IMG/VR virus record: IMGVR_UViG_3300005512_000009
Location: 1 to 64,000 of that record
Reading direction: 5' to 3' (one strand)
Length of the DNA: 64,000 bases
DNA from: a virus
Lineage: Duplodnaviria; Caudoviricetes
Part shown: positions 2,335 through 27,992 of the stretch, one piece after another
How the letters are laid out: the number at the start of each line of letters is the position of its first letter
How positions within the stretch are numbered: position 1 is the first letter of the stretch
Program-made: the position numbers and the translations under genes
Notes under the pieces: model-generated
Databases searched by the model: none
Seen by the model: only the letters and a program-made list of their open reading frames with translations
What the model was told of the DNA's origin: nothing

Positions 2335-3976
2335 ATGTTCGACACTATTTATGGGCGGTCTAGGAAACATGATGTTTCAAGCTGCAGCATCATATGCATA
2401 TTCTAAAAAATATGGATTAGAACATGTATTATTAAGTCAGCATCAAGGAACATTACATAACTCACCATCATATTATTTTGATAATATATTTCGAAACTTC
2501 GCAAAAAGTGAAGAAACCAATTGGTCAGTTTGCACAGAACCTACAGATGCTAGACCTTGCGTATACAAAGAAATTCCTAACCCAGAAAATGATGAAAATA
2601 TAATTCTTAAAGGTTTTTTTCAAAGTGAAAAATATTTCGAATCCTTTCATCATGATATTAGAAACTTATTTAAGCCGTCTACAGAAATATTAAACTACAT
2701 ATATGAAAAGTATGAAGTTTTAAAAACAAATACATGTATATCAATTCATATAAGACGTGGCGATTATGTAAACTTACAAAGACAACATCATAATTTAGAT
2801 ATAGGATATTATGTTAATGCAATAGACTATTTTCAAACAATTCCTAATACTAAATATTTAGTTTTCAGTGATGATTTAGAATGGTGTAAACAAGTTTTCG
2901 GCGAGTCTAATGATTATGTATTTGTCAACGAATTAGATTATATTAGTATGTATATGATGGGGCTATGTAATCATAACATTATTGCAAATAGTACATTTAG
3001 TTGGTGGGGAGCATATCTTAATAATCATACAGATAAAATTGTAATACATCCTGATAAATGGTTTGGAGTTGAAAATGATCATATAATTTTAGATGATTTA
3101 TTTCCAAAGTCGTGGATATGTATGAGCGAATCATATCCTAAAATGATGATTAACTTAATGGGAGGTATTTGTCGACACTTAACAAAAAATAACGGTCGAT
3201 GGTCTACGGTACATGATAAGATATCATCATATGTTAAAATAGTACGAGATACACCATACTATGGAGATGTTGTAATATATTCAGATGACACTATACAAAC
3301 CGATTTACCTAGAACATTAGAAGCTAAAAATAAAATTGGGTGGTTAATGGAAACGAGAGAAATCAGTCCTGCACGTTATGATAACTTCGAAAGTTACCAA
3401 AATAATTTTGATTTTATCATGACTCATGACAAACAATTATTAGAAGAATACCCAGATAAAACAAAATTTATTCCATTCGGCGGAAGTTGGATAAAAGATT
3501 ATAATTTTAAAATGTTCCCAAAAACAAAGAATGTATCTATGATATATTCAAATAAAAATTTCATGCCTGGACATAAGATTAGACATCAAATTGTAAATGT
3601 GGTTAAAAATATTGATTTGTTTGGGAGAGGTTCGAATCATCCAATTGAATATAAAGAAGATGCACTTAAAGATTATCGATTTTCAATAGTTGTAGAAAAT
3701 TCAAAGACTGATAATTATTTTACAGAAAAATTAATTGATTGTTTCGCGGTAGGAACAATTCCGATATATTGGGGGTGTCCAAATATTGATAAATTTTTTA
3801 ATACACAAGGAATGTTGTTATTTGATACTTTAGAAGAACTACAAGATATTATTAGTTCTTTATCTGCAGATAAATATGAATTAATGAAACAAGCTGCTAA
3901 TCAGAACTTGTTGTTATCAAAAAATTACAATGTTATTGAAGATTGGATGTATAAAAATATTTTAAAGGATATATGA
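2327..3976 (+). CDS. Fused GT11 (alpha-1,2) and GT10-like (alpha-1,3/4) fucosyl/colitosyl-transferase
   Basis: N-half GGLGNMMFQ, HIRRGDY, IIANSTFSWWGAYL; C-half YRFSIVVENS..YFTEKLIDCF..GTIPIYWG. Confidence 0.8.
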   Translation: MNKCSTLFMGGLGNMMFQAAASYAYSKKYGLEHVLLSQHQGTLHNSPSYYFDNIFRNFAKSEETNWSVCTEPTDARPCVYKEIPNPENDENIILKGFFQSEKYFESFHHDIRNLFKPSTEILNYIYEKYEVLKTNTCISIHIRRGDYVNLQRQHHNLDIGYYVNAIDYFQTIPNTKYLVFSDDLEWCKQVFGESNDYVFVNELDYISMYMMGLCNHNIIANSTFSWWGAYLNNHTDKIVIHPDKWFGVENDHIILDDLFPKSWICMSESYPKMMINLMGGICRHLTKNNGRWSTVHDKISSYVKIVRDTPYYGDVVIYSDDTIQTDLPRTLEAKNKIGWLMETREISPARYDNFESYQNNFDFIMTHDKQLLEEYPDKTKFIPFGGSWIKDYNFKMFPKTKNVSMIYSNKNFMPGHKIRHQIVNVVKNIDLFGRGSNHPIEYKEDALKDYRFSIVVENSKTDNYFTEKLIDCFAVGTIPIYWGCPNIDKFFNTQGMLLFDTLEELQDIISSLSADKYELMKQAANQNLLLSKNYNVIEDWMYKNILKDI

Positions 3977-4734
3977 AACAAAATAAATTTATTATAATTA
4001 CAACAGTATACAATCTTAAGGATTGGTTGCCAATGAATATTAACATGATGAAATATCAAAATTTTGATAACTGGCATTGTGTATACATAGACGATTGGTC
4101 AGACGATGGGTCATATGAATATTTAGTAGAAGAATTAAATAATGATCCTAGATTTACCATACTTCGTACAGAACATCCAAAGAGTCGTCAAGGAGCAGGA
4201 TTTTTATCTGCTATAGATCATCTACAAAATGAACTTAATGATGATGACATTATTGTAGAGGTAGACGGAGATGATTGGTTGAGTTCTGTATTTGTATTAG
4301 ATTATTTAAATCGAGTATATCAAGACGAAAATATATGGATGTCATATGGCCAATATCAAATTTACCCTACGGGACAGTTAGGCGGGCATTGGAATATGGA
4401 TATTTCAGATGATGTAGACTCTAGAAACGATTATCGTAGTCATCCATTTCCATATTCGCATTTGAAAACATACAAATACTGGTTATTTAAAAAAATAGAT
4501 CGAAAAGATTTAATCGATCCATCGACTAACAAAGTTTGGTCTAGTGCTTGGGATCACGCACTATGTCTTCCAATGGTAGAAATGTCAGGCAAAGGTAGAA
4601 TACATCGATGTACTGATATTTTATATTCATTGAATAGATCACAAGAATTGCAGAACGAAGGCAAAACAAGATTAAACGAACAAAAAAATACTGAACAATT
4701 AATACGACAAGGAACTCGTTATGAACGAATCTAG
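3973..4734 (+). CDS. Glycosyltransferase family 2
   Basis: IITTVYN, IDDWSDDGS, VDGDDWL. Confidence 0.8.
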   Translation: MKQNKFIIITTVYNLKDWLPMNINMMKYQNFDNWHCVYIDDWSDDGSYEYLVEELNNDPRFTILRTEHPKSRQGAGFLSAIDHLQNELNDDDIIVEVDGDDWLSSVFVLDYLNRVYQDENIWMSYGQYQIYPTGQLGGHWNMDISDDVDSRNDYRSHPFPYSHLKTYKYWLFKKIDRKDLIDPSTNKVWSSAWDHALCLPMVEMSGKGRIHRCTDILYSLNRSQELQNEGKTRLNEQKNTEQLIRQGTRYERI

Positions 4735-10219: not shown

Positions 10220-11506
10220 ATGAACGCTCTGGATGGAATATCTATAAATTCCAAAATCTCCCTAATAGTTGCAGGTCTAATTATGATGACCTTCTTTGCA
10301 GTACAAACCTGTATTGTATTTGGGATATGTGAACCAACCTTATTTCTTGCCAAATTTGGATGGGGATGTGTTGTATTCTTTATGCCACCATTCTTTAAAG
10401 TGGTACAAGAGTTTATTAAGAAAACTAAAATTAAAGAAGCTAAAATTAATACTCAACTAAACGCAATTGATAAATCTAATTTAATAGTAACTCTAGGAAT
10501 GGACACTACTATATTATCAGCTAATCAAAATTTTCTTAATGTAGTAGGTTATTCAGAAGACGAAATACTAAATAGCAAACACCCTGATTTATGTACTACT
10601 GATTTTAAATCAAGTAAAGAATATAAAACTTTCTGGGAAAAATTACACAATGGAGAATTTGTTTCTGGGGAATTTGAACGTGTAAATAAAAACGGAGAAT
10701 CAATATGGTTATTTGGTACATATACCCCGTTACGGAATGCTAACGGAGTGTATGATAAAGTACTTAAAATAGCTGTTGATATTACATCACAACATAAAGC
10801 TGAAGCAGAAGTTAAACAAAAAAGTATTTACTTAGAACACGCTGCAAAAATCATTAGACATGATATGCATAGTGGTATCAACACTTACATTCCAAGAGGA
10901 TTAAATTCACTTCAAAGAAGGTTGGATGATGAACAAAAGAAAAAACTAAGAGCACCACTACAATTGTTAGGAGATGGTGTTAAACATGCTCAAAAAGTAT
11001 ATAGTGGAGTATATGAATTTACTAATTTAGTAAAAGAAAATGCTCAGATGCCGAAAACACCAAATAACATTAAACAAATCTTAGATGAATATTTATCACT
11101 TACTGCATATAAAAATCAGGTTCTTTTAGATGATAATTTACCTGTATCATTAGAAGTAAACGAACCACTTTTTTGTACTGCAATTGATAACTTAATTAGA
11201 AATGGATTAAAGTATAATGATTCACCAACAAAATGGGTTAAAATATATTTTGAAGGTAATTATAATAAAGGGAGCTTCATTGTTATCGAAGATAATGGCA
11301 GAGGTATGACTCAGAGTGAATTTGATGAGTTATCTAAACCATATGTTCGTAAAGAAGGTCAAAAAGAGAAAGGAACGGGTCTTGGTTTAAATATTTGTAA
11401 AGCTATACTAAAGGAGCATGGTTTTGAACTTTCAATTGAAGAAATAGAAGATGACCCCGACACAGTTGAAATTGAAAGTGGAACTAAAATGAGAATAAAG
11501 ATATGA
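10220..11506 (+). CDS. Membrane-bound PAS-domain sensor histidine kinase
   Basis: 2 TMs, PAS/PAC (FWEKL..GEF..GESIWL..YTP), H-box IRHDMH, N-box IDNLIRNGLKYN, EDNGRGM, GTGLGLNIC. Confidence 0.92.
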   Translation: MNALDGISINSKISLIVAGLIMMTFFAVQTCIVFGICEPTLFLAKFGWGCVVFFMPPFFKVVQEFIKKTKIKEAKINTQLNAIDKSNLIVTLGMDTTILSANQNFLNVVGYSEDEILNSKHPDLCTTDFKSSKEYKTFWEKLHNGEFVSGEFERVNKNGESIWLFGTYTPLRNANGVYDKVLKIAVDITSQHKAEAEVKQKSIYLEHAAKIIRHDMHSGINTYIPRGLNSLQRRLDDEQKKKLRAPLQLLGDGVKHAQKVYSGVYEFTNLVKENAQMPKTPNNIKQILDEYLSLTAYKNQVLLDDNLPVSLEVNEPLFCTAIDNLIRNGLKYNDSPTKWVKIYFEGNYNKGSFIVIEDNGRGMTQSEFDELSKPYVRKEGQKEKGTGLGLNICKAILKEHGFELSIEEIEDDPDTVEIESGTKMRIKI

Positions 11507-21312: not shown

Positions 21313-21840
21313 ATGAAATGTCCTTATACAACAGCAAAACGAATGATCGCCTACATTCGCAATGTTTTGTCAGTACCATCTGACGATTACGGAGGACTTC
21401 CGCCATGCCCATTTGTAAAAGCAGAATTAGATAGTAGAAAACTAATGTTAGCAGAGTTAGATCCAGAACAAGAAAATTTACTTGCCATCATACAAGAATT
21501 TTCAAAATCTTCATATGAAAGTTTACTTGTAGCTCAGAAAATGCCGGCTGGAGAATCTTTATCAGCTAAAGAAACTGGGTACTATCAAAAACAAGTTAAT
21601 CGCATCCTTAAGAAGATGGGCATGAAAGAATACAAATGCATTTGCTTCAACCCAAATGATCGAGTTGGTCGCGTAAGGCAACAGGCACCGTACTTTTTGA
21701 TTAACATTGCACGTGCGGATGTTTTGAATGCAGCACACAAGAAAATAATGCAAACAGATTACTTTGCTTATATGTCAGAAGAGTACGTTAAATTTCTTCA
21801 TGTAGACCCAAAAAAAGTTATTAGAAAGGTTGGATCTTAA
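21313..21840 (+). CDS. Hypothetical protein (DUF1415-like)
   Basis: LPPCPF..FNP..APY. Confidence 0.45.
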   Translation: MKCPYTTAKRMIAYIRNVLSVPSDDYGGLPPCPFVKAELDSRKLMLAELDPEQENLLAIIQEFSKSSYESLLVAQKMPAGESLSAKETGYYQKQVNRILKKMGMKEYKCICFNPNDRVGRVRQQAPYFLINIARADVLNAAHKKIMQTDYFAYMSEEYVKFLHVDPKKVIRKVGS

Positions 21841-21891
21841 ATGTATATTTCTTATATTATAATATAGAAATTAGAAATTAAATTTAAGGTT

Positions 21892-23025
21892 ATGAAAAAG
21901 AAATTTGGTATTGTTAAAGACGGCATCGTAACAGATGCAACAACAGGAGAAGTAATTACATCACTCTTCCGAGACATCATGATTGAAAAGGCTGAAGCAA
22001 ATGGTCAAGCTCTTGCATTTGATGAAGAAACGGGTAGAGCACGAAGAATTGAAATATCAGAGGTTGAAATAGATCCAGTTGAAGATGTTCCTAAACAAGA
22101 AGTAAATGTAGAAGCAGACCCAGTATTAGCTCTTATTAAGAATTCAGCTGATCTTCGTCCTGAGACACTCGAAATGACGGATCTTAAATGGAAGTATCTT
22201 GTAAGGTCAGCATTGCGTGGTAAGAATATCATGATGGTTGGTCCTGCAGGATGTGGTAAGACAGAAGCTGCAAAAGCATTGCCAGCAGCAACGGATCGTC
22301 CATTCTTTTATTTTAACTTGGGAGCAACGCAAGATCCAAGAGCCACTCTTATTGGTAACACTCACTTCAAAGACGGCGAAACAGCATTTGATCAGTCAGC
22401 ATTCGTAAAAGCAATTCAGACTGAGAACGCAGTGATTCTGCTTGATGAATTGTCTCGTGCGCATCCAGAAGCATGGAACATCCTGATGACAGTATTGGAT
22501 GAAGGTCAAAGATATCTAAGATTAGATGAAGATATCAATGCTCCAACCATTCATGTAGCATCTGGTGTATCCTTTATTGCCACAGCAAATATTGGTACGG
22601 AGTATACTTCAACCAGAGTATTAGACCGTGCATTGATGGATCGATTTGAGATTATTGAAGTAGACATTTTGAGCAAGGAGCGTGAGTCGTCTTTGTTGGC
22701 AAAGCGTTTTCCAAAACTTGAAGCTGGATTGATTGAAGCAGTCGCAGACATTGCAGACTTGACTCGTAAAGAGTGGAGATCAGAAGAAGGCAAGCTCAAT
22801 ACTATGGTATCCACTCGTATGACAGTCAGAGTATGTGATTTGTTGGCAGATGGATTTACTTTGGCAGAAGCAGCAGATGTAGCCATTCTTCCATTCTTTG
22901 ATCAGTCAGGAGGTGCTGATTCTGAAAGGACGTTCCTAAAACAGATTATTCAGAAGCACATGGCAACCGCTGAAGAAGATATCTTCAATACAGGTACAGA
23001 AGAGACAATGGAGAATCCATTCTAA
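21892..23025 (+). CDS. MoxR/CbbQ-type AAA+ ATPase
   Basis: GPAGCGKT, ILLDELSR, IATAN, DRALMDRF. Confidence 0.9.
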   Translation: MKKKFGIVKDGIVTDATTGEVITSLFRDIMIEKAEANGQALAFDEETGRARRIEISEVEIDPVEDVPKQEVNVEADPVLALIKNSADLRPETLEMTDLKWKYLVRSALRGKNIMMVGPAGCGKTEAAKALPAATDRPFFYFNLGATQDPRATLIGNTHFKDGETAFDQSAFVKAIQTENAVILLDELSRAHPEAWNILMTVLDEGQRYLRLDEDINAPTIHVASGVSFIATANIGTEYTSTRVLDRALMDRFEIIEVDILSKERESSLLAKRFPKLEAGLIEAVADIADLTRKEWRSEEGKLNTMVSTRMTVRVCDLLADGFTLAEAADVAILPFFDQSGGADSERTFLKQIIQKHMATAEEDIFNTGTEETMENPF

Positions 23026-23076
23026 GTTACACTATTTGTTTTACAAAGGTAGCCATATTTATACTAAAGGAGTTTT

Positions 23077-23721
23077 ATGTATATTTATGGCTACCAAAAC
23101 AAAATAAATCAAAAATGGTATATTGGTAAAAGTGAGTGTAAAAATAAAACGCGTCGACATACTGAACACGTAAAACACGTACGTAATAATATGAAAACGC
23201 AGTTTTATGATGCAGTACGAAAATATGGATGGAAAATGTTTGATCGTCATATTTTATTTGAGTGTGACTCACGTATTGAACTAAATCAAAAAGAGATCGA
23301 ACTGATTGCTGAGTATAATAGTTACCGTAAAGGTTACAATGCGACTCAGGGAGGAGATGGCGGTGATACATTTTCATCATTATCAGAATCTCAAAAAATA
23401 GAAGCGAACAAAAAACGTTCAGCTTCATTGAAAGAAGCCTGGGTTCGAGATAGAGAAAAATGGATGAAATCATTTTCAGACACAGATTACTCATACCGAC
23501 GAACAAAGGAGTATAGAAAAGCACAATCTGAACGTTGTAAAACGATCAAAAAAGTAATAGACCCAGCTGGTAATGTTTATGAGTTCAAAGGTTTGGAAGA
23601 AATGAAAACGTATTTCAAAGATGTTGTAAACAAAGATATACCAATGAGAAACCCACATCGTGTGTCGCCAACGGTTATAGCTTGGCATGGTGAAAGTAAA
23701 GGCTGGAAGTTGATAGAATAA
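23077..23721 (+). CDS. GIY-YIG homing endonuclease (Seg-like)
   Basis: YIY..N.IN.KWYIGKS, AVRKYG, E..LI, GYN.T.GG.GG. Confidence 0.85.
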   Translation: MYIYGYQNKINQKWYIGKSECKNKTRRHTEHVKHVRNNMKTQFYDAVRKYGWKMFDRHILFECDSRIELNQKEIELIAEYNSYRKGYNATQGGDGGDTFSSLSESQKIEANKKRSASLKEAWVRDREKWMKSFSDTDYSYRRTKEYRKAQSERCKTIKKVIDPAGNVYEFKGLEEMKTYFKDVVNKDIPMRNPHRVSPTVIAWHGESKGWKLIE

Positions 23722-23763
23722 AAGTTTTCATAACCGAGAAGCAGTCATGTAAGTCGTCAGCTA

Positions 23764-24138
23764 ATGAAGTCAACGCATTGGCTGCTTCTTTTTATTTGTT
23801 TTGAAATGGAAAAGGAATATTGGACGGAAACGCAGTGGAGATTCTTGAAGAAGTGCTGTGATTTCAACTTGCAACAACACAACATACTGGTAAAAGTTAC
23901 TAGTCCACTGTATGTGCAGGAAGAAGATGTGTTGTTTGAAAACATATCATTTGAAACCGTTTTACACGAAGGATTATGTATTACAGGCCGGGTGCTAACA
24001 TCACGTGGCCAGGAAAGCCGATTCACATCTCTTCCAGCAGAATATTTCAAAGAAGGCGAACACGAGATGAAGCCGTGGGTGAAAGCCGTTATGAGAGTGG
24101 TGTTTGATTATTGGACCATGACCTACAAACACAACTAA
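23764..24138 (+). CDS. Hypothetical protein
   Basis: ORF; true start may be downstream. Confidence 0.5.
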   Translation: MKSTHWLLLFICFEMEKEYWTETQWRFLKKCCDFNLQQHNILVKVTSPLYVQEEDVLFENISFETVLHEGLCITGRVLTSRGQESRFTSLPAEYFKEGEHEMKPWVKAVMRVVFDYWTMTYKHN

Positions 24139-24192
24139 CATTTCTCAGAAAAAGGTTGTAAAAGTAAATTAGTTTATATATATTATAGTAAG

Positions 24193-24279
24193 ATGAAGAA
24201 AATTAATCAACATATGGTCTCGTTTAGTAAGCAGTGGCTGAATTATATTCGCACTGTAACATCCGGATACAAGAGTTGA
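24193..24279 (+). CDS. Putative leader peptide (28 aa)
   Basis: MKKINQHMVSFSKQWLNYIRTVTSGYKS just upstream of a terminator. Confidence 0.45.
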   Translation: MKKINQHMVSFSKQWLNYIRTVTSGYKS

Positions 24280-24310
24280 TTTAAGAATACATATCATATT
24301 TTTTAATTTA

Positions 24311-24349
24311 AATCCGGATTGCTAAACAAAGCAGTTCGGATTTTTTTTT
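24311..24349 (+). terminator. Intrinsic terminator / attenuator hairpin
   Basis: 13-bp stem AATCCGGATTGCT/AGCAGTTCGGATT plus T-run. Confidence 0.8.
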
Positions 24350-24450
24350 GAAAAAAGTTTCAAAAAAAGGTTAGATTGTAAAGATATTTTTCTTATCTTT
24401 AAGTATAGAAATTAGAAAAAAAAGTTCATTGACATCTTGAAAAACCCAAA

Positions 24451-24535
24451 GGAAGAGTGGCAGAGTGGTCGATTGCACTTGTCTTGAAAACAAGCGTACA
24501 GAGATGTACCGTAGGTTCGAATCCTACCTCTTCCG
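24451..24535 (+). tRNA. tRNA-Ser(TGA)
   Basis: Cloverleaf with long variable arm. Confidence 0.92.
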
Positions 24536-24542
24536 CATTTAT

Positions 24543-24613
24543 TGTCCTGTGGTGTAATGGCAGCACATCTGGTTTTGGTCCAGAGAATCGAGGTTCGAAT
24601 CCTTGCGGGACAA
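24543..24613 (+). tRNA. tRNA-Gln(TTG)
   Basis: Anticodon arm tctgg-ttTTGgt-ccaga. Confidence 0.92.
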
Positions 24614-24619
24614 CTATTC

Positions 24620-24693
24620 GCCCTCTTAACTCAGTTGGCTAGAGTACCACACTTTTAATGTGGGAGTCCAGGGTTCGAGTCCCTGAGGGGGTA
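24620..24693 (+). tRNA. tRNA-Lys(TTT)
   Basis: ccaca-ctTTTaa-tgtgg. Confidence 0.92.
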
Positions 24694-24800
24694 CAAGCTG
24701 TTCTGCATCAGAAGTGCTGGGTAGGTGAAACATTCTATCAGATGAGCCCATCAAAATGTGAGTAGTTTTGTGGTAACTACTTAAAAGTAAACCACATTAT

Positions 24801-24883
24801 GCCCGAGTGTTGGAATTGGTAGACAAAGCGGTCTTAGAAACCGTGGCTGTAATGGCTTGAGAGTTCGAGTCTCTCCTTGGGTA
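24801..24883 (+). tRNA. tRNA-Leu(TAG)
   Basis: gcggt-ctTAGaa-accgt. Confidence 0.92.
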
Positions 24884-24890
24884 CAACAAT

Positions 24891-24962
24891 GCACCTTTAG
24901 CTCAGAGGGAGAGCGCTTGCCTTACATGCAAGATGTCGGTGGTTCGAATCCATCAAAGTGCA
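24891..24962 (+). tRNA. tRNA-Val(TAC)
   Basis: cttgc-ctTACat-gcaag. Confidence 0.9.
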
Positions 24963-24969
24963 CTATTAT

Positions 24970-25055
24970 TGGTAGGTGGTCGAGTGGTTAAAGGCGGCAG
25001 ACTGTAAATCTGCTCTCTTCGGAGTACGGGGGTTCGAATCCCTCCCTACCAACCA
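24970..25055 (+). tRNA. tRNA-Tyr(GTA)
   Basis: gcaga-ctGTAaa-tctgc; encoded CCA. Confidence 0.92.
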
Positions 25056-25058
25056 TTT

Positions 25059-25132
25059 GCATTGGTAGTTCAATTGGATAGAACACTTCACTACGGATGA
25101 AGGGGTTGAGGGTTCGAGTCCTTCCCAATGTA
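25059..25132 (+). tRNA. tRNA-Arg(ACG)
   Basis: cttca-ctACGga-tgaag. Confidence 0.92.
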
Positions 25133-25138
25133 CAAATT

Positions 25139-25211
25139 GGTACTGTAGCTCAGTTGGTAGAGCAGTTGATTTGTAATCAACCGGTCATCAGTTCGAATCT
25201 GGTCAAAGGCT
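25139..25211 (+). tRNA. tRNA-Thr(TGT) with mismatched acceptor stem (chimeric/pseudo)
   Basis: gttga-ttTGTaa-tcaac; acceptor GGTACTG vs CAAAGGC has three mismatches. Confidence 0.7.
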
Positions 25212-25218
25212 CATTTAT

Positions 25219-25292
25219 CGCCCGTTCGTCTAGCGGTCAAGGACATCGCCCTTTCACGGCGAAGATCACGAGTTCGAATCTCGTACGGGTGA
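25219..25292 (+). tRNA. tRNA-Glu(TTC)
   Basis: tcgcc-ctTTCac-ggcga. Confidence 0.92.
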
Positions 25293-25305
25293 CAGTAAAT
25301 AATAA

Positions 25306-25376
25306 GGCGGGGAGCTTAGTAGCAGCCGGGTCTCATAAGCCATGGTGTGTAGGAGGAGCGTTACCTTCCCCCGCAA
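25306..25376 (+). tRNA. Atypical initiator-like tRNA-Met(CAT)
   Basis: fMet-type acceptor GGCGGGG/CCCCGCA, ctCATaa loop, reduced D arm, non-canonical T loop. Confidence 0.55.
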
Positions 25377-25381
25377 CTAAT

Positions 25382-25465
25382 GCACCTGTGGTGGAATAGG
25401 TAGACACGTGGGACTTAAAATCCCATTCCGTTTTAGGAGTACCAGTTCGATTCTGGTCAGGTGCA
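25382..25465 (+). tRNA. tRNA-Leu(TAA)
   Basis: tggga-ctTAAaa-tccca. Confidence 0.92.
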
Positions 25466-25473
25466 CATATATT

Positions 25474-25545
25474 GGTCCTATGGTTGAATGGTACAATGCC
25501 ACCCTGTCACGGTGCGCGGTACGGGTTCGAATCCCGTTAGGACCG
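25474..25545 (+). tRNA. tRNA-Asp(GTC)
   Basis: cacc-ctGTCac-ggtg. Confidence 0.88.
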
Positions 25546-25553
25546 CAATAAAT

Positions 25554-25627
25554 GGGCTGTTAGTTCAGATGGCTAGAACGCCTGCCTTGCACGCAGGAGG
25601 TCGTGAGTTCGAGTCTCACACGGTCCA
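25554..25627 (+). tRNA. tRNA-Ala(TGC)
   Basis: cctgc-ctTGCac-gcagg; G3-U70. Confidence 0.92.
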
Positions 25628-25634
25628 CAAATAA

Positions 25635-25707
25635 GCGGAAGTAGCTCAACTGGTAGAGTATCAGATTTCCAATCTGGTCGTTGAGGGTTCGAGTCCCTTC
25701 TTCCGCT
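25635..25707 (+). tRNA. tRNA-Gly(TCC)
   Basis: tcaga-ttTCCaa-tctgg. Confidence 0.92.
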
Positions 25708-25712
25708 CAAAA

Positions 25713-25785
25713 GCGAGATTAGCTCATTTGGTAGAGCATCACCTTGCCAAGGTGAGGGTGGTCGGTTCGAATCCGATATCTCGCT
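25713..25785 (+). tRNA. tRNA-Gly(GCC)
   Basis: tcacc-ttGCCaa-ggtga. Confidence 0.92.
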
Positions 25786-25791
25786 CAACAT

Positions 25792-25870
25792 AGGGTAGTA
25801 GAGGAGTCAGGTTTATCTCGCTACATTTGGGATGTAGAGCACGCTGGTTCGAATCCAGTCTACCCTACCA
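25792..25870 (+). tRNA. tRNA-Pro(TGG)
   Basis: ctaca-ttTGGga-tgtag; encoded CCA. Confidence 0.9.
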
Positions 25871-25950
25871 TAGTATGGTTTTAACAAATGCCTGTGCCAG
25901 AATGTCGACCAAAATACAGGGATATGTAGGTAGCGACTTACCGCTAAACA

Positions 25951-26024
25951 GGACTTGTAGCTCAGTTGGTTAGAGCACCGCACTCATAATGCGTAGGTCA
26001 TAGGTTCGAATCCTATCTGGTCCA
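25951..26024 (+). tRNA. tRNA with CAT anticodon (Ile2 likely, or elongator Met)
   Basis: cgca-ctCATaa-tgcg; Ile-like body. Confidence 0.85.
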
Positions 26025-26031
26025 CTGATTT

Positions 26032-26105
26032 GCACCCATAGCTCAGCTGGATAGAGCAACTCACTTCTAATGAGTAGGTCAAAGGTTCGAATCCTTTTGG
26101 GTGTA
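26032..26105 (+). tRNA. tRNA-Arg(TCT)
   Basis: actca-ctTCTaa-tgagt. Confidence 0.92.
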
Positions 26106-26139
26106 CAACTTTATTTAGTTCCAAATATTTATAAGTGTT

Positions 26140-26319
26140 ATGAAAGGCAAATACAAGGATAAGACGGCTACGGGCCAGTCATTTGGTGAAGTCATGCACC
26201 ACATTGGAAAACAAACAACGGAGCAAGTAAAGAAGTCTAAAAAGAATTATTCTAGAAAGCAAAAACATAAAAATGGCGAATGGGATGATTGGTGTCCTGA
26301 TTATCCTTTATTCATTTGA
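26140..26319 (+). CDS. Small basic protein, ArfA-like motif
   Basis: Read manually, 59 aa; QVKKSKKNYSRKQKHK. Confidence 0.5.
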   Translation: MKGKYKDKTATGQSFGEVMHHIGKQTTEQVKKSKKNYSRKQKHKNGEWDDWCPDYPLFI

Positions 26320-26345
26320 TCTTACCAATATTTTCATTATAATAA

Positions 26346-27992
<1,647 letters not shown>

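Follow-up and report, generated by a model that had tools for sequence, protein, structure and literature searches.

Results

A candidate leader ahead of a phage tRNA array

The DNA analysed here, referred to as the window, covers the first 64 kb of a viral contig of 93.5 kb and about 33% G+C, which is about 55% complete and carries nearly all of its genes on the + strand. Between the genes for an AAA ATPase and for GroEL lie a GIY-YIG endonuclease gene, a gene for a protein of 124 residues and an array of 16 tRNA genes, the array being preceded by a short open reading frame (ORF) placed between a promoter-like sequence and an intrinsic terminator (Table 1). A preliminary description of this stretch had listed a promoter-like sequence, a 28-codon ORF and a strong terminator in this order, and all three were recovered where it had placed them.

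Table 1. Positions of the features discussed in the text; window numbering unless a contig is named.
Feature	Position	Strand	Details
AAA ATPase gene	21892-23025		5' flank of the leader/tRNA block
GIY-YIG endonuclease gene	23077-23721		
124-residue gene	23764-24138		Directly ahead of the tRNA cassette
Promoter P1	24149-24184	+	A-rich tract; -35 TTGTAA 24156-24161; 17-nt spacer; -10 TATATT 24179-24184 (consensus scan)
Leader ORF	24193-24279	+	28 codons; ATG start, TGA stop; alternative ATG start at 24214
Antiterminator helix I, 5' strand	24222-24229	+	Predicted to pair with 24320-24327; pair probability 0.95
Internal hairpin	24231-24257	+	Between the two antiterminator helices
Octamer 1, ATCCGGAT	24261-24268	+	Codons 23-26; copy of the terminator 3' arm; 5' strand of antiterminator helix II
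Intrinsic terminator	24310-24349	+	Stem-loop 24310-24343; T run 24341-24349 (nine T)
Octamer 2, ATCCGGAT	24312-24319	+	In the terminator 5' arm
Promoter P2 region	24351-24426	+	-35 TTAGAT 24371-24376; 17 nt; -10 TATCTT 24394-24399
17-nt element (17-mer)	24424-24440	+	10 nt ahead of tRNA-Ser; once in the window
tRNA array, 16 genes	24451-26106	+	Ser Gln Lys Leu Val Tyr Arg Glu Leu Asp Ala Gly Gly Pro Met Arg
tRNA-Thr-like remnant, 5'-truncated	25144-25205	+	51 bits with the tRNA model of Rfam (positions 6-65 of that model); not called by ARAGORN
GroEL gene	26376-27992		3' flank of the leader/tRNA block
L136 leader ORF	L136 8694-8789		19/30 codons, 8/8 tRNAs; 0/251 short ORFs, 0.0014 of gene windows
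L131 leader ORF	L131 1769-1671	-	13/31 codons, 5/5 tRNAs; P 0.013 and 0.004
17-mer copies	L126 104-120 (-); L131 1609-1593 (-); L136 8861-8877; L129 1706-1722 (-); L053 ~10890-10906 (14/17 variant)		

The first promoter, P1, aligns with four other sites in the record that share AAAGG, TTGnnn, a spacing of 17 nt and TATATT. This layout, headed by an A-tract, was observed at window positions 21825, 24151, 24366, 34887 and 35964, the members of the family being P1, P2, the promoter of the ATPase gene and two early promoters. The region of P2 is a paralogue of the ATPase promoter region at 21811-21885, with 76% identity over about 76 nt. A caveat of the preliminary description, namely that a promoter-like site near 24371 could bypass the terminator, is borne out by P2, which sits between the terminator and the tRNA genes in the window and likewise in two related contigs, L121 and L122. 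As such, the arrays of these phages can be transcribed without any read-through of the terminator.

The ATG of the leader ORF lies only 9 nt past the -10 hexamer of P1, and its mRNA would therefore be leaderless or nearly so. No Shine-Dalgarno sequence was found before this ATG (+0.7 kcal/mol, the 13th percentile of the phage's genes). Since only 42% of the phage's genes have such a sequence, its absence is weak evidence against translation of the leader. No Rfam family matches 24150-24350.

Predicted folds of the leader RNA

The stem of the terminator consists of 14 pairs, two of which are G-U, and closes a loop of 6 nt at a predicted -18.0 kcal/mol; its first base is a G in L121, where a G-U pair is retained. 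The octamer ATCCGGAT, which has only 4 occurrences in the 93.5-kb record, is present both at the end of the ORF and in the 5' arm of the terminator, as described before. For the full-length leader, a long imperfect hairpin (24205-24281) followed by the terminator is predicted (-37.1 kcal/mol), with octamer 1 paired to 24217-24225. When the transcript stops before the 3' arm of the terminator, however, the predicted fold switches: 24312-24327 then pairs with octamer 1 and with 24222-24229 (-27.4 kcal/mol), and these two helices form the minimum-energy fold of transcripts ending at 24330-24337. This alternative fold ties up 16 contiguous bases of the terminator (5' arm and loop), while the internal hairpin between the two helices appears in every predicted fold.

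The two octamers had been proposed to pair as an antiterminator, and in the predicted fold they do so. By itself the octamer-octamer helix is weak (-7.9 kcal/mol), but adding the 5' arm and loop to the upstream RNA gains -9.7 kcal/mol, compared to -4.1 +/- 2.3 kcal/mol for dinucleotide-shuffled upstream RNA, a value reached by 14 of 1000 shuffles. It is also the largest gain among nine + strand terminators in the genome, the other eight ranging from 0 to -4.2 kcal/mol. From these statistics we conclude that the octamer pairing is part of a larger and statistically unusual alternative structure. L121 keeps and even strengthens this fold (-32.1 kcal/mol); the three adjacent substitutions that it carries (24258-24260) are in the junction.

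The effect of a translating ribosome was modelled by keeping a footprint of 28 nt unpaired at each position of the A site. The probability of the octamer helix is about 0.93 for an A site in codons 2-19, 0.74 at codon 20 and 0 from codon 21 to the stop codon; the predicted sensing part of the ORF is thus formed by codons 2-19 or 2-20. The earlier suggestion that a ribosome stalled early in the ORF would allow read-through agrees with this model as far as the helix is concerned, whereas translation of the leader, stalling, read-through itself and the physiological signal behind them are what we infer from the sequence. The equilibrium model without a ribosome also favours the antiterminator, which means that termination without translation would need the earlier hairpin to persist kinetically.

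The same leader ahead of a different array

L121 and L122 came from scanning metagenomes for the protein family of the 124-residue gene product. From position 24149 exactly, these contigs and the window are 87-98% identical over P1, the leader ORF, the terminator, P2 and the stretch leading up to the first tRNA, whereas the sequence just upstream of 24149 cannot be aligned and the 124-residue protein is only 42% identical. The leader ORF is intact in both, with two synonymous changes and one replacement, and so are both octamers. Only two distinct versions of the window-type leader exist, and their 95% identity may reflect a recent mosaic exchange. Searches for further copies beyond L121 and L122 found none. 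Since the window and the L121 phage show a mosaic of identities, with 69% in the ATPase promoter, 82% in the ATPase gene and 96% in a neighbouring protein gene, conservation of the leader says little about its function, and we rejected it as evidence thereof.

In L121 and L122 this leader is followed by 12 tRNAs (Ser, Gln, Lys, Tyr, Arg, Phe, Trp, Asn, Ile, Met, His and Cys), which can read 18 of its 27 codons, with 11 of the 12 tRNAs being sampled. Null windows cut from real genes gave 11.9 +/- 2.8 codons and 6.8 +/- 1.5 tRNAs, and reached both values of the leader in a fraction of 0.0009; the corresponding value is 0.009 for random short ORFs and 0.006 under strict wobble rules, figures that must be read with the knowledge that the match was noticed before testing and that three arrays were tried. 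Moreover, the codons read by the array cluster in the predicted sensing part of the L121 leader (15 of 18, versus 3 of 9 elsewhere). No such match is seen for the 16 tRNAs of the window itself (14 of 27 codons, 9 of 16 tRNAs, P 0.6-0.9), as the array of the window was remodelled and the leader no longer corresponds to the tRNA set behind it.

What this remodelling involved can be read from a comparison with L122. The window's array looks derived from an L122-type array, of which it is missing seven tRNAs (Phe to Cys), while tRNAs for Leu-tag and Val-tac have been added. The truncated tRNA-Thr-like sequence within the array falls in a stretch, 25145-25708, that aligns with L122 3975-4540, where a full tRNA-Thr is found at 3969-4042; this remnant marks the junction and is probably the scar of the deletion that took out the seven tRNAs. 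The region of L122 that was lost from the window contains a GOLLD RNA. This RNA (RF02032, 165 bits at 3421-3923), which probably spans about 3000-3940, lies inside the array and has an embedded tRNA, with a P2-like promoter and a degenerate 17-mer on its 5' side and a terminator (3939-3960) at its end.

Comparable leaders in two unrelated lineages

Two further contigs, L131 and L136, were reached only via a 17-mer that they share with the window before the first tRNA, and were thus not picked for their ORFs. Both show the same layout of a promoter, an ORF (32 and 31 codons, respectively), a hairpin with a T run, the 17-mer and tRNA genes, in sequences that are unrelated to the window. Their terminators are long-looped and were missed by a simple terminator scan. 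No promoter-like site was found between terminator and tRNAs in L131 or L136.

In each of the two, the leader codons match the tRNAs that follow (Table 1). For L131, this match drops to P 0.043 without an aberrant Ser-like tRNA with anticodon TGA, located right after the 17-mer at about 1580-1485 on the minus strand; it has good acceptor, anticodon and T arms and an aberrant D region, and was called by neither ARAGORN nor Rfam. Taken over the lineages together, the combined probability of the codon match is 6e-5 or less. Pooled over the three lineages, codons read by the arrays make up 39 of 55 in the sensing part and 11 of 33 in the rest (P 0.0006).

Furthermore, the ORFs of L131 and L136 each contain a 9-nt copy of the 3' arm of their own terminator. 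Counted as a 0-based offset from the ATG, the copy starts at ORF nucleotide 68 in the window (octamer 1), 69 in L136 and 70 in L131. The gains in folding energy are likewise comparable, at -9.7 kcal/mol for the window (P 0.014), -8.3 for L136 (P 0.004) and -8.7 for L131 (P 0.016), with a combined Fisher probability of 1e-4. Judged by eye, the three leader peptides look unrelated, and as such do not appear to form one protein family.

Could all of this be accidental? The terminator might simply end an upstream operon of the ATPase, the homing endonuclease and the 124-residue gene, with the ORF and the repeated octamer having arisen by chance in an AT-rich spacer. Short ORFs are common in the record, with 216 of 28-45 codons, and the single statistics each reach only P values of about 0.004-0.02, for a feature that was picked out by scanning the whole window; the conservation in L121 and L122 may, as noted, stem from recent exchange. 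Chance does not explain, however, why that identity starts exactly at P1, next to upstream sequence that cannot be aligned and an upstream protein that is so much less conserved, nor why the layout is repeated in three lineages with different sequences, for which the combined folding and codon probabilities are given above. We therefore regard a coincidence as quite improbable.

The accessory cassette and its 17-nt element

The tRNA array and its head are an accessory cassette, judging by their absence from the closest relatives and the low number of tRNAs in the wider group. The closest relatives in IMG/VR have ATPase and GroEL genes that are 96% identical in DNA to those of the window, but lack the GIY-YIG endonuclease gene as well as 23839-26113, which takes in the greater part of the 124-residue gene along with leader, terminator and the entire array. 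In one group among them (L084 and L007), a homologue of the 124-residue gene is retained, and behind it lies a hybrid tRNA remnant resembling the recombination product of two tRNA genes. The interval between ATPase and GroEL (23026-26113, compared with L084, L088, L005 and L006) is a hot spot of variation. Only 0-6 tRNA genes are present in each of five nearly complete genomes (158-173 kb) from the wider group, and no clear leader-terminator unit was found in G014, the only one among these five with six. The 124-residue protein belongs to a small orphan family, with only 5 proteins in a large protein collection; its gene adjoins the 5' side of a tRNA cassette in every contig with readable context, and at 42-91% identity the family is fast-diverging.

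The 17-mer occurs once per genome, behind a promoter in some cases and behind a leader terminator in others. Scanning for exact matches located it 7-13 nt ahead of the first tRNA in L126, L131 and L136, viral contigs that are otherwise unrelated, and without an adjacent tRNA in L129, while L053 has a variant matching at 14 of 17 positions. Equivalents of P2 are located 5' of the 17-mer in L129, with a perfect TTGACA, 17 nt and TATATT, and in L053. We considered a role like that of the boxA of rrn operons, which found no support: each of the five Bacteroidota genomes that hold the 17-mer has one exact copy, that of Segatella copri, the only genome whose rRNA operons could be located on the contig carrying the 17-mer, is not beside 16S genes, and no rRNA was found in three Bacteroidales loci that hold it. 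In genome bins of Bacteroidales, the 17-mer is seen within a repeat at contig ends. Our searches found no account of this element in the literature.

Discussion

In this study, we describe a stretch of phage DNA that, with a probability of about 0.55 in our estimate, is a leader-peptide transcription attenuator heading a mobile cassette of tRNA genes. What supports this reading is that the same layout exists in unrelated lineages, that the ORFs of L131 and L136, and the shared leader in L121 and L122, match the tRNA sets behind them, and that the copy of the terminator 3' arm is found at nucleotides 68-70 of each ORF. In the proposed mechanism, P1 would give rise to a short transcript with the 28-codon ORF. 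A fast ribosome that has reached the last codons or the stop codon would cover octamer 1, upon which the terminator hairpin (24310-24343) would form and a leader RNA of about 155 nt would be released. If, on the other hand, lack of a charged tRNA stalls the ribosome with its A site somewhere between codon 2 and about codon 20, octamer 1 would remain free, and in the case of early stalls 24222-24229 would be free too. These free segments could then pair with the 5' arm and loop of the terminator, allowing the polymerase to continue into the tRNA genes. As its codons are of many different kinds, the leader would report on the tRNA pool in general and not on a single amino acid.

The preliminary description had called this arrangement classical attenuation geometry. 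That judgement is strengthened by the recurrence of the layout in L131 and L136, by the codon match and by the footprint model; for the window itself it is weakened by the bypass through P2, by the mismatch between leader and array, and by a start codon that lies almost at the predicted 5' end of the transcript and lacks a Shine-Dalgarno sequence. In the window phage, the attenuator would be one of two inputs, with P2 providing transcription that does not depend on it, and a deletion took away seven of the tRNAs that the leader was apparently built for. Starvation or anticodon nucleases, as had been suggested, would be conceivable triggers.

The presence of P2 also fits a different explanation, in which P1, ORF and terminator make up a stand-alone gene whose product is either a small RNA of about 155 nt or a protein of 28 residues. 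The terminator would mark where this gene ends and insulate it from the array, P2 alone would drive the tRNA genes and the alternative fold would be incidental. In favour of this, the unit has a promoter of its own, a strong terminator with nine T and a separate promoter right behind it, and the transcript has the typical shape of a small RNA: a free 5' end, a long hairpin, an AU-rich spacer and a terminator, with a folding z-score of -3.5. Both readings may even coexist, as attenuator RNAs can double as trans-acting small RNAs, rnTrpL being an example (PMC7968998). With rnTrpL/peTrpL of Sinorhizobium, termination at the attenuator yields a separate small RNA much as proposed here, although that element belongs to the tryptophan operon, unlike the window unit (PMC7968998). 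A stand-alone gene, however, leaves unexplained why codons match arrays in three lineages, why the 3'-arm copy keeps its position in the ORF, and why no promoter follows the terminator in L131 and L136. In view of the codon and cross-lineage tests, we regard this explanation, with P2 as the sole promoter of the array, as unlikely.

How does the attenuator as we propose it compare to known systems? Leader-peptide attenuators are familiar from amino-acid operons of enterobacteria, such as trpL and hisL and the multivalent thr and ilvGMEDA leaders. These have in common with the window unit a promoter, a short ORF, an intrinsic terminator and a segment overlapping the ORF that pairs with the terminator 5' arm; in both, the position of the ribosome is predicted to set the outcome, and multivalent leaders sense several amino acids. 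Unlike them, the window unit precedes tRNA genes in place of biosynthetic enzymes, is borne by a phage, moves with a tRNA cassette and has a second promoter after its terminator. Its leader furthermore has no runs of a single codon, sampling 11 tRNA species one to four times each.

T-box riboswitches (RF00230) resemble the proposed unit in that a terminator/antiterminator switch reports on tRNA charging; they differ in binding uncharged tRNA directly, in having a conserved specifier and T-box sequence, and in regulating synthetase and amino-acid genes. One could suppose that the switch in the window is set by something other than the ribosome, for example by uncharged tRNA as in T-boxes, by a protein or by a small ligand, which would render the ORF irrelevant. 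The alternative folds exist with or without translation and the translation start signals are poor, both of which suit this idea. Nevertheless, no Rfam family matches 24150-24350, the T-box covariance model gave no match anywhere in 23700-26400 (E up to 5), and the three leaders have no common sequence or fold that could provide a shared binding pocket. The codon content and the position within the ORF point to the ribosome instead, and a switch that works without it seems to us very improbable.

The physiology closest to that of the proposed phage attenuator, among what has been published, is that of the trn operon of Anabaena PCC 7120 (PMC8421152; PMC10272220). It is an accessory array of tRNA genes that is silent by default and induced by impaired translation, which is the logic that we propose for the phage array, and translational stress acts there via promoter repeats and, going by the title of PMC10272220, the repressor TrcR (PMC8421152; PMC10272220). 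Control of the trn operon would not run through a leader, unlike in the proposed phage unit, and an attenuator, leader or terminator is nowhere mentioned in PMC8421152. For leader-peptide control of tRNA genes in general, our literature searches found no published account.

It is an old question what phages need tRNA genes for, and to our knowledge almost nothing is known about the regulation of their tRNA arrays. Recent reports connect phage tRNA genes with the evasion of tRNA-cleaving host nucleases (PMC10264068, PMC11464382, PMC11555353). A broader proposal, for which we see slightly less than even odds, is that phages of aquatic habitats possess a modular device for sensing tRNA demand, consisting of a multi-codon leader that tracks the array, an antiterminator copy at ORF nucleotide 68-70, a terminator and the 17-nt element ahead of the first tRNA. 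It would travel with tRNA cassettes and let phage tRNA synthesis respond to the stalling of ribosomes, for instance when host tRNAs are depleted or cut. If this is true, the window presents a natural case of an array that was remodelled and a sensor that was left out of date. The evidence across lineages, which comprises different sequences with the same layout, the same antiterminator position and matching codons, makes the idea testable in any culturable relative, and the shared 17-mer offers a handle for finding further cases. Should the attenuator be real, phages would measure decoding capacity and make tRNAs on demand, and the logic of trp and his attenuation would extend to RNA genes.
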